The notes: generated by a model from the sequence alone, not told the origin. A DNA stretch of 64,000 bases from Eledone cirrhosa (GCA_964016885.1 OZ024749.1:44950001-45014000); one strand, 5' to 3'. Shown: positions 46-62,674, numbered from the stretch's first letter. Numbers and translations are program-made.

Positions 46-96
46 AGTTTAAGCAAAGAATCGCTGCTTTCACCCTCAACGGGATCTTCTGAAACT
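46..96 (-). ncRNA. Type I hammerhead ribozyme motif with one core substitution
   Basis: Minus strand reads AGUUU-CAGAAGA-UCCC GUUGA GGGU-GAA-AGCA..UGCU-U|AAACU. Stem I AGUUU/AAACU is perfect and stem III is AGCA/UGCU. The sister copy at 42.3 kb has UGAAGA, so the family core is probably CUGAAGA. Confidence 0.65.
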
Positions 97-149
97 AACA
101 AAGTCAATCTGTGAACGCAGAAGTGAATATTTAAAAAAAAACGTTGCTT

Positions 150-302
150 ATATATATATATATGTGTGTGTGTGTGTATGTGTGTGTGCGTGCGTGTGTG
201 TGTATGTGTGTGTGTGTGTGTGTGTGTGTGTGTGTGTGTGTGTGTGTGTGTGTGTGTGTGTGTGTGTGTGTGTGCGTGCGTGTGTGTGTGTGTGTTTGTG
301 TG
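150..302. repeat. (TA)n/(TG)n compound microsatellite, representative of dozens in the window
   Basis: Directly visible dinucleotide runs. Confidence 0.99.
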
Positions 303-1186
303 TTTATATATTCTTAGGAGATATTTAGTTGATAGAGCGACCATTTAGTTTTTGGACACATTCCCGTGCTGCCGGCATAGATATAGGATTCTTCCACGTG
401 TGGTTTGTTAATAAAATGACTAGAAATCTTAAAGGCAGCGAATCCAGCGCGATTAAATGCAACCGAAAAATCTTTAGTTGTCGAGCAATTAAAACAATTC
501 TCTAGCGTGCTCTACCAGGAAATATTTTACTTTAGAAAATAACAATAATAATATGTGTATATATAACTATAGATTAGGGAATTGTCAAATGACAACCGTT
601 TGATCGACCCACCAAAATAAACATCTTGTTGAGTCAGCCACCACTGGACGTTATAAGCTACTCTTACCTAGAACTTGGGAAACTCAATACGATATCTCGT
701 ATATATATATATATATATATATATATATATATATATATATATATATATATATATATATATATATGTATATAAGTATATATATATGTATGCATGTATGTAT
801 GTAAATATGTATGTATATCTTTTTCGGGTAGTGTTTTCGATGCTCAGAAAGTGGGATAGGTCGAGTACAAGGCCTTTCTCCCCTTAAAAAACCTTCAAAG
901 CACAGGATATGTTATAGGTATTCGTGCCTGGCCGTAGCCTAAAAGTGTACCATTTTCTGTAATCTGACAAGCGATTGCAATATTCTTAGCAGAGTGTGCA
1001 TCCATCCAATATGGATCTACCCGTCATTAACTTTGTAAAAGTTATATATTGTCAGAATTTGTATTTAATACAGATTGTTTATTCCTATATTCCTATATGA
1101 ATGCAAGAGTAAATAACCCCATGTAGTTGTAAGACCTTCAGATCTATGTGTTCATTCCGTTACCTTTAGAATTAGGTAATACTTAC

Positions 1187-1447
1187 ATGGTGGCTGCCAA
1201 CTCGTTTTCGAGTATGGCCTCAACTTTATATCCATGTAGGAGAACCCCTACCGATGCACTCTGGTACAAACACTACACTTGTGACAATTATTGACACAGT
1301 GCTGGGCCCATAGTACCATGTGACAACAAGTACAGAGAGATCTCCAGATATAAAGCAATGCCTGTGCCGTGAAGCTTTTATAGTGAGCAAAGGCACTGCA
1401 CAAAGCCAGTCCCACTCTCTTAACCAAGATGATATTTACCAAAAAGA
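1187..1447 (+). mobile_element. Dispersed repeat (second copy 41616-41918), possible decayed Penelope GIY-YIG endonuclease fragment
   Basis: Closely matches 41616-41918 apart from a ~45 bp deletion. Translation includes CREAFIVSKGTAQSQSHSLNQDD, resembling the R..E..I....LN.D C-terminus of PLE GIY-YIG domains. The repeat is certain but the GIY-YIG call is tentative. Confidence 0.45.
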
Positions 1448-1475
1448 AGAACAAGTCAACATCATTGGATACCAT

Positions 1476-1542
1476 CAGGGTTGCAGGTGTTATATCAGAG
1501 TTTTCCTTCTCCTAGAATTCTGCCCTGACAAAGGCTAAGGGG
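1476..1542 (-). mobile_element. Probable RTE-clade LINE 5' UTR fragment
   Basis: Reverse complement contains tctaggagaaggaaaactctga, a motif recalled from RTE 5' regions. Confidence 0.4.
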
Positions 1543-2049
1543 TCATCTCTCATACATATATACATACATACAAACATATGTACACACACACACACACATA
1601 TATATAATTATATATTTATATATACATGCATATATATGTGTATATATATATATATGTGTGTGTGTGTATGTTTGTGTGTGTGTGTGTGTGTGTGTGTGTG
1701 AGGTGTGTGAGGTGTGTGTGTCTGTGTGTCTGCGTGTGTGTATGTACTTGCATAAGTGAATGCATGTTCATTGTTAAACACAGAAACCTCTTGTTAAAAA
1801 TCTCAGCTTGATTATATATAACTAGCTAGATTGAAGGTTTACGTAATGACATGATATTTCAGTTAGACTGTAGATAAATAGTGGGCATTATTGTATAAGG
1901 TAACAAGGATGAAAAATAATAGTAAGTTACATATTTTAATTAGTAACTGTATAGTGGTTGTCGAATACTTTTCAAATATTCGAAAAAACAGTAAAAATGA
2001 GTTGATCATATGCAACGTCAGAAATTCTGTTGCTTCGAAATATAGTACA

Positions 2050-2393
2050 GAAAAGGTGCTGGTACCATAGGCTGCTTGTAATATAAAGGCATACAAATTA
2101 GATGATGTTTCCTTAGCGGAATTAGAATTAGACCTGGATGGTTGGATATATTTACTCCAAGCCAATCTGGATCTGACCTTCATGCTTATTAATGTCCTGG
2201 GATACATGAGCACGAGGAAAAGTATGGGGCAGAGAGCTAACTTGGTATTAGCCGAATCAGGACAATGAAACGATACACCACCTGCTGCAATCTACAGCAA
2301 TACCATCACAATGGTGAGTGCATGTCTAAGAAATCACCACTGGTCTAAGGTAGACTTGTTGTCGCTGCTAACAGAAGAGACTTATATAAATTG
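2050..2393 (+). mobile_element. Highly decayed Tc1/mariner-like transposase C-terminal remnant
   Basis: LQANLDLTFMLINVLGYM resembles the WPPxSPDLNPxDYxVWGY motif, and downstream SACL...LVVAAN resembles the mariner C-terminus. Many stops and frameshifts. Confidence 0.3.
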
Positions 2394-59643: not shown

Positions 59644-60315
59644 TAGATTAATTTGTGTGCATATATGTGTGTGTATTTGTGTGAGTATGTGCGAATGGCT
59701 GTATATCTGTGTATGACTGCATGCTTTTGTTTGTACTTGTGTGTGGCTGTGCTTGTTGGTATATGTGTGTATGAGTGTGAAAAATAGTTGGAATCAATGG
59801 GAGCAACAAATGTAGATTTATCATCAAAGAGACCGATAAAGGAATCGTTAAGAAGTAAAGTACGCGAGGATTCTGCTATTAGAAATGTTTTTACGCCTAG
59901 GGACATTAAAACTCAATTGCATCACAAAAAGCAAAATAACTCGCCCACCTGACTATGATAAAAACACCATCTGTTTTTTCTTTTCTTTTTTTCTTATTTG
60001 TTTGTCTATACTGATTGTCTGTTTTGTATTCTTTACACGGCAGGATTCAAAATAAACTACAGTTGTCATACACAATAGATTATGACTTATTAATATGTAC
60101 TAGGGTATGGGTTTCAATTGCCATTGCAGCAGCAAGAAGATACAGTCAACGTCTTAAACGACCCTCTATTGAGCCAATGAAACAAGCAGAATATAATACT
60201 GGAAAACATTGGGAATGCACCTTATAGCATCTCAAAATGACGTGCAGAAATGTGGACCTTGAAAGGATTTGAAATTCAAAGAGAAGAAACGCATTTCATA
60301 TTGCACAAAAATGTA

Positions 60316-60481
60316 CCGTATTTCTCGGCGTCGAAAACACGACTTTTTCCCTAAAATAAGTCTAAAAAATCACCATGGGTCCTGGAGGCCGAAGGTTATT
60401 TTTTATTTTTTTTCAAATTTTTGGCTGTCAAAATTAGGGTGTGTCCTCGAGAACGAAACCTCTTCGGCGCCGGAAATACGG
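60316..60481. mobile_element. Tc2/pogo-like MITE, 166 bp
   Basis: TA|CCGTATTTCTCGGCGTCGAA ... TTCGGCGCCGGAAATACGG|TA, i.e. TIRs with a TA duplication. Confidence 0.88.
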
Positions 60482-60989
60482 TAAACGTTTTCCCCACTCA
60501 TCTAGTTAGACTAATGCTAATAGGTGAATCACAGTGTGGATGAGATATTTTATCGGAATTTTCCTGGATATTATTACGGTTCCAGATACATTTATTTCAA
60601 ATGTTATTGTCATAGATATTTATATAATTATATATTTTTAACATTTCATTCATGTTGAGCATTTGTCTCTACTCAGATGTGTAAATGTTCGCTTATCATA
60701 ACTCAAGATAGTGTTTGATATGCTCTTATTTCACACATTGTGTACTACTACTACTAATACTACTACTACAACTACTACTACTACTACCACAAACTAGATT
60801 ATAAAGAGTCAGAACAAATACCGCAAGTCATTGTTTTCCGACATTCTAACGGATCTGCTCAATCAATCGCCCCTCTTTTTTTGTTGTTGTTACACCTCAC
60901 ACCTATGTAGGTTTAGATGGCCCCCTCCAAGGTTATATCTCATTGGAGATTTCTTGGTTATCTAATGAGAGGGACCCCAGTCCTATCAT

Positions 60990-61133
60990 CTCATTTCTAC
61001 AGCTGAGTAAACTGGAGTAACGTGAAATAAAGTGTCTTGCTCAAGGAAACAACACATTACCCGGTCCGAGAATTGAACTCACAACTTTCGATTGCAAGCC
61101 GAATGCTCTAACCACTAAACCATGCGCCTTCAC
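60990..61133 (-). mobile_element. CORE-type SINE (family 2)
   Basis: gtgaaataaagtgtcttgctcaaggaaacaac plus A and B boxes in reverse. Confidence 0.82.
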
Positions 61134-61149
61134 TTTCCCTACTTAGTAA

Positions 61150-61760
61150 ATAAGTATTTCTAATTTAGGTACAATGCTAGCAATTTCGAAGAATTTATAC
61201 GTTGATTAAATCAACTCCAGTACTTGGTACTTCATTTTACCAAGCCCAGATGGATAGTGCAATTTTCGACCTTGGTGGAATTTGGTCTCAGAAAGTAAAG
61301 ACCCATAAGAAATAATTCAATCATTTCGTCCGTCTCTATGAATTCTGACAAACCGTCACATTATGAATGATAAGGATACTGGCTTCTAACTTAGACATGA
61401 AGCCGGCTATTGTTTATTATGGAGGGGAATTAGTACGTTATTTTATAGATTCAGAAATGCTGGAACATAAAGCTAAACTCCATGTGTTTAGAACTTCGTT
61501 TGTAGCGAGCCGAAACAAATGCTAACCGAGATTGCGAATTCATCAATAAGGATTACTTTACCAATGATTGCATTCATTTAGAAATTATGAATTAATTCAA
61601 CATAAAAATAACTACAGCATTAAATCGAATGAAGTGCATAACTATTACATATTTTAATGAGCCCAAAACGATGGAAGTTGAAGAGAGCCACGGTGGAATT
61701 TGAACAAGATACCGCAGGCAATTTCTCCGACTCTCATACGTCTATGTCTAACCTTACCAC
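61150..61760 (-). mobile_element. Several old degenerate SINE family 1-related copies
   Basis: Recurrent tttctaa..aggtacaa, tggtacttcatttt and ggtggaatttgaac remnants. Confidence 0.55.
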
Positions 61761-62424
61761 GAATCATGCTACTGGTATAAGAGACAGGTGTCATTGCTCT
61801 CATTGATAATCTGTTGGGTATTAGTCGTTTGATATGACGAATTTCGTTTATTCAATTATCAGGATTATATTTGTAATCTATTTGTATCGTGAAAGCTATT
61901 TACTTCTAAAGAAACATCAGCACTTTGCGTGATAAACTATATGACGAATATTAAAATGACTGATCTATCCACATTTATATGCGAATATATATATATATAT
62001 ATATATATATATATATATATATATATATTCATATATAGATATATGTAATTTCCTATTAAGCAAGAAAGTGCCTAGTTATGTAAATATAGACGTAGAGTTT
62101 TGATACACAGATTTATATTGATTCTATGTTATAGGAGCTTCCTCGTTGGTGATTGAACAAATCGCTATGATGAGCTCCGATGCAAATTATCCGCTCAGGT
62201 TTCATCACCTCAGTTGAGCAGTTATATAGGAAGCAAGATCAGAAAATTACGCTGGCATCTATTCCTCTGGCTTTGAACTGATCTAAGTTTTCAACTACCC
62301 ACACATGCACACACACACCCGTATATCCCAATATACTATATATATATATATATATATATATATATGGAGGAGGTTATAGTTCACTTGAAGCATTGTGTAA
62401 TGAGGTATAAACGTTTGTATATGT

Positions 62425-62674
62425 ATAATAAAGCCAAACAATGCAGGTATGGACATAGAATAAAGAATGCAAATGCAAAAGTTATTGTTGACAATTAGTC
62501 TTTTACCTTAGATTTATTTAAATGTCCTTAATTTTCGAGATAATATCTCGAAGAAGAGATATTATCTCGAAAATTAAGGACATTTTAATAAATCTAAGGT
62601 AAAAGACTAATTGTCAACAATATCTTTTGCATTTGCCTTCTATGTCCATACCTGCATTGTTTTGACTTTATTAT
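62425..62674. mobile_element. ~250 bp fold-back palindrome pivoting on an HHR core remnant
   Basis: Arms of about 120 bp with a 6-bp spacer (62550-62555). The right arm reads GAAGA-A-GAGAUA U UAUCUC-GAA-AAUU-A|AGG. Confidence 0.88.

Follow-up and report, generated by a model that had tools for sequence, protein, structure and literature searches.

We have found in the genome of Eledone cirrhosa a large and diverse population of short insertions that carry hammerhead ribozymes and lie between TA microsatellites, and we are very confident that they are short copies of the hammerhead-bearing pseudo-long terminal repeats (pLTRs) of protein-coding Penelope-like elements (PLEs), mostly of the Hydra clade together with one Neptune-like family. 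The stretch analysed (GCA_964016885.1, OZ024749.1:44950001-45014000, from an assembly of 3.0 Gb) comprises 64,000 nt and is called the window below, positions being counted from its first letter. The window is AT-rich, tracts of (TA)6 or longer making up 10.5% of its bases versus 5.1% in 59 evenly placed 10-kb pieces of the genome, which together provide a sample of 590 kb. A first-pass annotation of the window had listed about 15 islands between the simple repeats, six with good type I hammerhead folds and nine with variant or decayed ones. We count 22, partial family pieces included (Table 1); four islands of family D, two of family G and further pieces of families B and E had been overlooked.

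Hammerhead ribozymes between TA tracts

The six good folds (14640+, 21563+, 27936-, 28165-, 28423- and 57544-, with an inverted partner of 27936 at 28007+) all have intact CUGAnGA and GAAA cores, helices I to III and an NUH cleavage site, helix I being open and helices II and III closed. A strict type I descriptor found four matches in the islands of the window, against 0.18 ± 0.39 per shuffle when the non-repeat islands were each dinucleotide-shuffled 60 times. A relaxed descriptor, which permits a mismatch at the base of helix II and was set after inspection of the window but applied with identical rules to the shuffles, found seven (the six good sites and the inverted partner of 27936), compared with 0.06 in 50 shuffles. 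Applied to the genome sample, it gave 54 matches, 41 of them scoring 12 or more, versus 0.6 in eight shuffles. The match rates are far above those of the shuffled control that had been proposed as a check.

Strict-type matches occur once per 9 kb in the window and once per 11 kb in the sample. A bootstrap over the 59 pieces gives 183,000-376,000 motifs per genome, a range in which inverted pairs are counted twice and a few low-scoring singletons may be due to chance. The 61 matches of window and sample fall into 26 clusters at 80% identity and 19 at 70%, in agreement with the large and diverse population that had been claimed. The further claim that the families are unrelated in sequence does not hold for all the sites named: 22944, 28165 and 57544 are members of one family (A), and 14640 (family I) and 21563 share the arms of helices I and III with it. 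The proposed association with (TA)n was found throughout the sample, (TA)4 lying within 200 nt on the 3' side of 45 of the 54 matches versus 23% of control GAAA positions; on the 5' side it lies within the same distance in 17 of the 54.

We have aligned 14 hammerheads of families A, H and I and found two-sided changes at five of the six pairs of helix II, which is the covariation that the earlier annotation had asked for. The helix II cells of the alignment are paired in 96% of cases versus 32-60% when the alignment is slid, a comparison among related sequences and not a probability. In the same way, none of 500 shuffles matched the covariation score, a figure that the kinship of the 14 sequences keeps from being a probability. 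In this alignment the palindrome of helix III switches from AU to GC pairs, which is what pairing between two copies would produce. Helix II has, at its fourth position (column 19 with column 49), an invariant C that faces C or U between covarying pairs and is likely a tertiary contact.

Could the folds be chance matches in AT-rich, repeat-rich DNA? Free-energy folding of 16 pieces gave no z score below -1.7, that is, minimum-energy folds no better than those of shuffles, and the minimum-energy fold was mostly not a hammerhead. Rfam had no hammerhead model among the 150 matches listed of 548 in the window, where microsatellite and hairpin microRNA models dominate, nor among 30 matches in 27880-28510. 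The excess over shuffles, the covariation of helix II and the recurrence of the same families speak against chance, which we regard as highly improbable. It is refuted for the six good folds, which by core, topology and covariation are type I hammerheads, as had been claimed, and for those variants that are supported by a family. Six of the nine variant sites are of this kind, belonging to repeat families with a real or variant hammerhead. The other three (24764, 28610 and 58306) are weak and have poor helices, and for them chance may hold; among the loci collected there was no second copy of 24764 or 58306, and 28610 had three blast matches.

Link to protein-coding Penelope-like elements

Six families could be followed into protein-coding elements, and the Penelope-like origin suggested before was thus confirmed. 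Families A, D, E, F and H run into Hydra-clade reverse transcriptase (RT)/GIY-YIG genes and family B into a Neptune-like gene. Extension in the 5' direction, another check that had been proposed, reached RT and GIY-YIG open reading frames (ORFs) in A and B, endonuclease ends in D, E and H and the start of the ORF in F. In one locus of family A (L103), a pLTR and tail are followed by an open frame of 672 residues, an untranslated region (UTR) of ~1.8 kb, a second hammerhead and then (TA)n. The frame has the motifs RWR (in place of RWK), DKT and YRDD, a CxCX5C linker and a GIY-YIG endonuclease without CCHH, and its MGSSDSAQV region is similar to the Hydra rows of the published alignment. Young copies of family A are 98-99% alike. 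The CxCX5C linker and the endonuclease without CCHH are common to A, D and E, whose endonuclease regions are 40-49% identical, indicating that the ribozyme diversity reflects old lineages of coding elements. Six of 25 long copies of family D have the Hydra endonuclease ~1 kb upstream and are colinear with one another over ~1.95 kb, and it was likewise found in all three long copies of family E; endonuclease matches near E in three other loci (L133, L151, L153) belong to other elements or to the opposite strand and were discarded. The tail of family F continues into the start of a Hydra ORF in two loci (L118, L119). Direct pLTR repeats carrying the hammerhead were found in A (L103), B (L093, where a partial upstream piece lies ~3.7 kb before the 3' pLTR) and F (L259, with two repeats).

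Family B is represented mostly by short ends. The best 30 of 1535 candidates have their 5' ends 162-711 nt from the 3' end, and one reached the end of GIY-YIG. When 30 loci were chosen with an endonuclease-end query, the hammerhead lay ~250-570 nt downstream of the query in 24. Longer stretches (10 loci) contain RT, a CX4CxxC linker and a CCHH GIY-YIG endonuclease, with all the ORFs broken, and the copies are ~88-94% identical to one another. The RT is similar to the alignment row beside Neptune1_Ac, while the linker and CCHH motifs are common to Neptune and Nematis. The endonuclease is C-terminal in A and B, and in D, E and H it adjoins the UTR on the upstream side. The Naiad clade, for which an N-terminal endonuclease and no canonical hammerhead are expected, was rejected on account of these positions.

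The sample contains 100 insertions of 12 families, the short ends amounting to ~3% of the sampled bases. Hydra ORF pieces are present in seven of its 59 pieces and Neptune-like ones in two, and the window gave no PLE ORF match, as had been expected of truncated pieces. The PLE protein has 487 homologues, few of which carry a name, the closest named one being from Argonauta hians. Another Hydra-type endonuclease end followed by a hammerhead, here with a helix II of ~100 nt, was seen in one of the collected loci (L084:1-900).

Structure of the insertions and a possible two-start mechanism

Each family has two fixed 3' ends. The first, in A, D, E and F, lies at a TA-like internal site 25-60 nt beyond the point of cleavage. 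The second follows ~80 nt further on and closes the tail, a stretch that forms the beginning of the 5' UTR in full elements. In loci picked by their tail, an arm with the tail stands head-to-head with a tail-less arm in 25 of 25 cases in family D, 19 of 25 in A and 8 of 25 in F, and TA tracts flank these two-armed insertions. In family D, 10 of 62 arm pairs (several from loci picked with a D query, a few counted twice) have a tail arm whose 5' end falls short of that of the tail-less arm by more than 12 nt. The tail-less arm is therefore no fold-back copy, and each arm is a cDNA of its own. The 5' ends show no peak at the cleavage site (A 1/64, B 1/20, D 0/40, E 0/48), and among tail-picked E loci only two of 25 5' ends lie within 2 nt of it. 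Together with the intact copies that span the site, this indicates that the RNA template was uncut or re-joined. Other apparent breakpoint peaks, at -46/-34, -57 and +38 in A, -346 in E and +52 in H, proved to be artefacts of subfamily divergence or of cross-family matches.

In vitro, PAc, a Poseidon element of Anolis, nicks and extends both target strands, two internal RT starts bound its tail, and mutation of the hammerhead leaves insertion normal (Frangieh et al., 2024, PMC11167929). From this work and the genomic structure we infer a two-start mechanism for the Hydra elements described here. The element endonuclease would nick both strands of a (TA)n tract, and two cDNAs would start at two internal sites of the RNA, the tail being the stretch between them. 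Both cDNAs would extend towards the 5' end of the RNA, ending prematurely or where the template ends, before being joined. As the hammerhead would lie ~40-160 nt from the start sites, the shortest products would retain it, giving the look of a mini-element. It is likely, then, that the endonuclease and RT of the elements themselves placed the islands in nicked (TA)n tracts, and the hammerhead motifs of this genome are probably mostly passengers, insertion presumably not requiring cleavage. The two-armed, TA-flanked structure matches, at genome scale, a mechanism so far shown only in vitro. The tails of families A, D, F, G, H and I are unrelated, yet immediately beyond the first 3' end all of them have a hairpin-like motif (CTC...GAG-Y-R-C); a second copy precedes the start codon of family A, and something similar is found at the end of Hydra-2_Amil. 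This motif is a candidate protein-binding site that might set the two priming positions.

Metazoan non-LTR retrozymes, non-coding units of 150-450 nt that spread as self-cleaved circular RNAs, would also produce short, abundant insertions with a type I fold and a short palindromic helix III; the islands measure 120-280 bp and have very high copy numbers, and retrozymes themselves derive from pLTRs (bioRxiv 10.64898/2026.07.22.740005). However, the 54 sample matches include no same-family neighbours on the same strand within 1.5 kb, and the window has none either. The pairs are head-to-head, the 5' ends are either variable or located within the ribozyme and do not coincide with the cleavage site, and six families could be extended into coding elements. 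With no tandem arrays in the sample and with these coding continuations, this explanation is largely refuted and we consider it very unlikely, and the separate non-coding or retrozyme-like class of the first-pass annotation has to be given up with it.

Several points weigh against the derivation of the islands from coding PLEs as passengers of target-primed copying. The ORF link of family H is a single contiguous locus (L191), and for families G, I, J, K, P and the 18992 family such a link was sought and not found. Pfam assigned neither the Hydra ORF nor the endonuclease piece of E to a family and, for B, gave only sub-threshold RVT_1 and GIY-YIG matches, and the clade calls (Hydra, Neptune-like) come from motifs and alignments compared by eye. 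Priming in PAc is not guided by homology, its starts lying in an AC-rich stem-loop without homology to the target, whereas here both ends are TA-like (PMC11167929). The covariation of helix II shows that selection acted on the fold in the master elements, where it is no mere passenger. Finally, the short copies of family D greatly outnumber the long ones, and self-propagation is possible.

Family D and a fixed 5' limit

Within the derivation from PLE pLTRs, family D has a pattern of its own. With 17 insertions in 590 kb it would reach about 86,000 per genome, and it was overlooked at first because its short copies are without the CUGA half. The full D ribozyme has a 6-bp helix III and a helix II of ~56 nt. 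Among 36 cores, most of them taken from loci chosen for their close relationship to a single young copy, 27 are CUGAGAA, which places C3 opposite A8, and four have a compensated U3-A8. In PAc the C3-G8 pair is required for cleavage, single changes at C3 or G8 abolishing it (PMC11167929), and by this comparison the ribozyme of young D copies is predicted to be inactive, though the family is abundant and young (93-98% identity). For older D copies, with U3-A8, activity as a monomer is predicted, and for the ribozymes of A, B, F and H cleavage that is weak or assisted by dimers. A pattern search for intact D ribozymes with loops of up to 30 nt gave 16 matches, all of them junction by-products or chimeras, the natural helix II being ~56 nt. 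In four loci (L249, L250, L251, L252) D arms are joined at +41 to +46 to the hammerhead region of other families, rebuilding a chimeric CUGA...GAAA of the type that such a search favours.

The arms of family D end sharply. All 25 tail-picked loci break at +41 to +53 from C3, and among 40 D arms in loci not picked for D, 26 break in the core or helix II and two pass beyond. Exact walking placed one arm at +39, none at +40, 11 at +41 and 10 at +42, with 132 of 138 at +41 or later. Of the 62 arm pairs, 58 have their start at +41 or beyond and 17 extend precisely to +41, both arms stopping there. Contig depth (three public runs, contigs of one sample, depth being no copy number) steps up ~20-30-fold over +30 to +51, with loose ends before +41. 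In family H, nine of 17 genuine arms end at -72 to -68, and the H island of the window, with its 5' end at -68, lies at this limit. The cluster of 5' ends in A is broad, with 10 arms passing the limit, and the breakpoints of E and F are dispersed; helix II as a general breakpoint hotspot holds for D only and was rejected. In D (+41), H (-70) and young A (-89) the limit coincides with the A of TTTC-A, a match noticed after the fact. TTTC-A resembles an initiator.

These data can be read in a way that would refine the derivation from PLE pLTRs. The D (and H) islands would be a defined unit, in which transcription starts inside the pLTR (in helix II for D) and the stretch of 130-270 nt between this start and the two internal priming sites is copied to the RNA end. 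The template could be the 5' end of the full mRNA, or short RNAs of solo copies mobilised in trans, as in short interspersed elements (SINEs). The sharpness of the D limit in both arms, including the loci not picked for D, agrees with this, as do the depth step near +41 in one sample and the TTTC-A common to three families, Penelope having an internal promoter with an initiator (PMC2377424). Against it stand the dispersed ends of E and F and the broad cluster of A, the post hoc nature of TTTC-A, and a cap-derived extra G that is not enriched at D +41 (2/11). Besides, folding places +41/+42 at the loop/stem boundary of the inner helix II hairpin, where a stall or a cut in the loop would fit too. 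We give this explanation not quite an even chance, and that the limit inside D helix II marks an RNA 5' end is a tentative reading which falls just short of being the probable one. The mini-element form proposed in the first-pass annotation would survive for family D, and perhaps H, where short copies have a fixed 5' limit, and not for the other families.

Rather doubtful, although worth stating, is the combined picture of a genome with the densest reported hammerhead load found (about 1 per 11 kb, or some 200,000-400,000 motifs) in which family D spreads mainly as a defined unit of ~135 nt from a transcription start in helix II, its full ribozyme being inactivated family-wide. If true, this would be a natural experiment in which PLEs amplify without ribozyme cleavage, and a SINE-like mini-element would have been born from a pLTR promoter.

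Comparison with known systems

Canonical hammerheads are readily detected in the Hydra clade, and (TA)n is the insertion target of almost all its families (Craig et al., 2021, PMC8557442). The supplement of that work includes Hydra-1_Obim of Octopus bimaculoides, with a (TA)n target and an annotated hammerhead. The Hydra families found here share with the published ones the C-terminal GIY-YIG without CCHH, the DKT and RWK-like motifs, the CxCX5C linker and the hammerhead near the end, as well as the (TA)n insertion, the inverted 5'-truncated copy and the tail (PMC8557442). They differ in number, at least five lineages versus one Octopus family among the supplement rows matched, in tails of ~80 nt versus the 30-40 bp published (PMC8557442), and in 3' UTRs of 1-1.8 kb. 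They also differ in having tens of thousands of short copies each and, in two families, family-wide changes of the core. Family B shares with Neptune (or Nematis) the RT, the CX4CxxC linker, the GIY-YIG with CCHH, a pLTR with a minimal hammerhead, the extra A after the core and the simple-repeat flanks.

Single hammerheads, scattered and heterogeneous, were described in a survey of 2014, along with pairs on opposite strands at distances of 100-700 bp (Cervera and de la Pena, PMC4209133). The minimal PLE hammerheads reported there also form heterogeneous families within a genome, are mostly single motifs from truncated PLEs, and include opposite-strand pairs, palindromic helices III, the U3-A8 variant and an extra base before helix II. 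Several of our families differ from them in a helix III of 3-6 bp and a helix II of 25-60 nt. The counts of minimal motifs given were ~2,000 in Schistosoma, ~4,000 in the coelacanth and ~9,000 in Xenopus (PMC4209133), against the 183,000-376,000 estimated here with a different descriptor. Other hammerhead counts are ~5,000 in a mussel and 126,247 in the axolotl (Cervera and de la Pena, 2020, PMC7229834). Retrozymes (PMC7229834; Li et al., 2026, preprint) are likewise short, high-copy, PLE-derived and of type I, but they are described as head-to-tail arrays expressed as circles, whereas here we have single or head-to-head pieces of coding elements. PLE hammerheads are reported to cleave as dimers (Lunse et al., as cited in PMC6765202). 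The PAc paper, in the sections covered here, does not mention short insertions with a fixed 5' limit (PMC11167929).

The combination of a hammerhead, a (TA)n target and truncated inverted ends is already known in Hydra and Neptune elements, octopus included, and the novelty suggested in the first-pass annotation for the TA-restricted form does not stand. What is new is the scale, the number of lineages and the pattern of family D, which together with the density we did not find in the literature searched, a scope that excludes subscription journals, Repbase and Dfam and takes the supplement of PMC8557442 by matching rows only. Neither an octopus hammerhead census nor a fixed 5' limit inside a ribozyme was found there, although supplements may hold cephalopod counts. 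In the main text of a 2026 repeat annotation of Octopus vulgaris the words ribozyme and Hydra are absent (PMC13282606). To standard tools short PLE ends resemble microRNA hairpins or miniature inverted-repeat transposable elements (MITEs).

For the role of the hammerhead in PLEs this genome is instructive, as dozens of natural variants occur in it together. They include intact-core, dimer-type ribozymes (A, B, H, I, J), ribozymes whose helix III is stable but whose core is altered (D, E) and insertions of half a ribozyme, a set that permits a direct test of whether cleavage aids, hinders or is irrelevant to spread.

Islands and other repeats of the window

The features of the window are collected in Table 1. 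Among the variant hammerheads, that of family E at site 46- has the family-wide core CAGAAGA (U4A) and a U.U at the base of helix II; U4A is present in 42 of 45 copies. The U.U appears tolerable, as the same mismatch is present in an active axolotl ribozyme (PMC7229834). The U3-A8 core variant of family P (21823+) is found in four of four copies. At 18992+ the deleted A6 contrasts with a relative (L152) that retains an intact hammerhead, and the CUGA half lost from the family K island is retained in two relatives (L098, L218). Between 27707 and 28918 (1.2 kb), six families stand in a row (B, F, A, B, the 28610 candidate and K) with a TA tract between each, the result of repeated insertion into one TA tract.

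Table 1. Hammerhead-related islands and candidates in the 64,000-nt window of Eledone cirrhosa.
Feature	Position	Strand	Description
Family E (Hydra clade) terminal repeat	1-147	-	hammerhead 46-97, C3 at 91, 4-bp helix III
Family G two-armed island	3588-3770	+	hammerhead 3' half with 4-bp helix III, tail; ORF link not found
Family I island	14599-14753	+	intact hammerhead 14640-14704 (C3 14647) after inverted tail stub
Family D (Hydra clade) island	16310-16435	.	tail-only arm head-to-head with tail-less arm starting at +42 in helix II; half-hammerhead
Decayed minimal hammerhead	18905-19080	+	fold 18990-19018, A6 deleted; not TA-flanked
Family D two-armed island	20816-21011	.	tail arm 20816-20954 (-), short arm 20955-21011 (+); both begin in helix II; no CUGA half
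Family G two-armed island, decayed	21189-21377	.	
Family H (Hydra clade) end	21504-21663	+	intact hammerhead 21563-21633 (C3 21571), palindromic helix III
Family P island	21799-22012	+	U3-A8 core variant at 21828-21834, 5-bp helix II, weak helix I
Family A (older subfamily) end	22894-23061	-	core intact (C3 23001), helix II decayed
Family B (Neptune-like) extreme end	27707-27784	+	only the part downstream of the hammerhead
Family F (Hydra clade) two-armed island	27830-28094	.	tail arm hammerhead 27936-27993 (-); inverted arm hammerhead 28007-28066 (+, GAAG)
Family A end	28116-28307	-	intact-core hammerhead 28165-28230 (C3 28222)
Family B (Neptune-like) end	28332-28507	-	minimal hammerhead 28423-28456 (C3 28453), palindromic ACGU helix III
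Weak candidate (28610)	28564-28709	-	core and helix II present, helix I missing
Family K end (28813)	28724-28918	+	GAAA half and long helix II; CUGA half lost
Family D two-armed island	33184-33382	.	junction in helix II
Family B end	42001-42116	-	cut at helix II start
Family E two-armed island	42165-42383	.	tail arm (-), short arm (+), junction in core/helix II
Family D (older subfamily) two-armed island	57254-57459	.	junction in helix II
Family A (young, Hydra clade)	57501-57777	.	tail-less arm with hammerhead 57544-57609 (-, C3 57601); inverted arm 57611-57777 (+) with ~80-nt tail
Family E remnant	58135-58265	+	hammerhead deleted, tail retained
Weak single-copy candidate (58306)	58290-58437	+	core CCGAUGA
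Family J two-armed island	62409-62674	.	inversion junction inside core (62549/62550); hammerhead intact in a relative (L226)

Family C (14812-14961, 24615-24696, 42479-42574; eight insertions in 590 kb) is TA-flanked and has inverted arms. It was not counted as a hammerhead, its CUGAUGA lying 23 nt downstream of GAAA and having no helix II partner, and it recalls the 'half core' reported for Naiads (PMC8557442). A young TA-ended repeat with inverted and repeated ends, in which a hammerhead was not found, occupies 41431-41918 and 1188-1446 and has 26 matches in the collected loci; it is possibly a Naiad or another element that targets simple repeats.

The window also contains a satellite at 12504-13800 (25.9 copies of a 50-bp unit with 99% matches), with no CUGAnGA core in it, and a MITE-like element of 170 bp at 60314-60483 with terminal inverted repeats of at least 10 bp. 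A dispersed repeat of ~190 bp with a B-box-like word (13 exact word matches) was seen at 5907-6400, 18320-18460, 22320-22510, 24160-24330, 35750-35930, 45280-45460, 55510-56040 (three head-to-tail copies), 58710-58890 and 62770-62940, and is presumably a tRNA-derived SINE. Adjoining PLE copies in the collected loci, and named by eye, were an L1/Tx1-like endonuclease-RT frame (L092, oriented 806-4000), an open Tc1-like transposase frame (L104, oriented 1837-2703) and a long tandem repeat (L097, oriented 283-2688).

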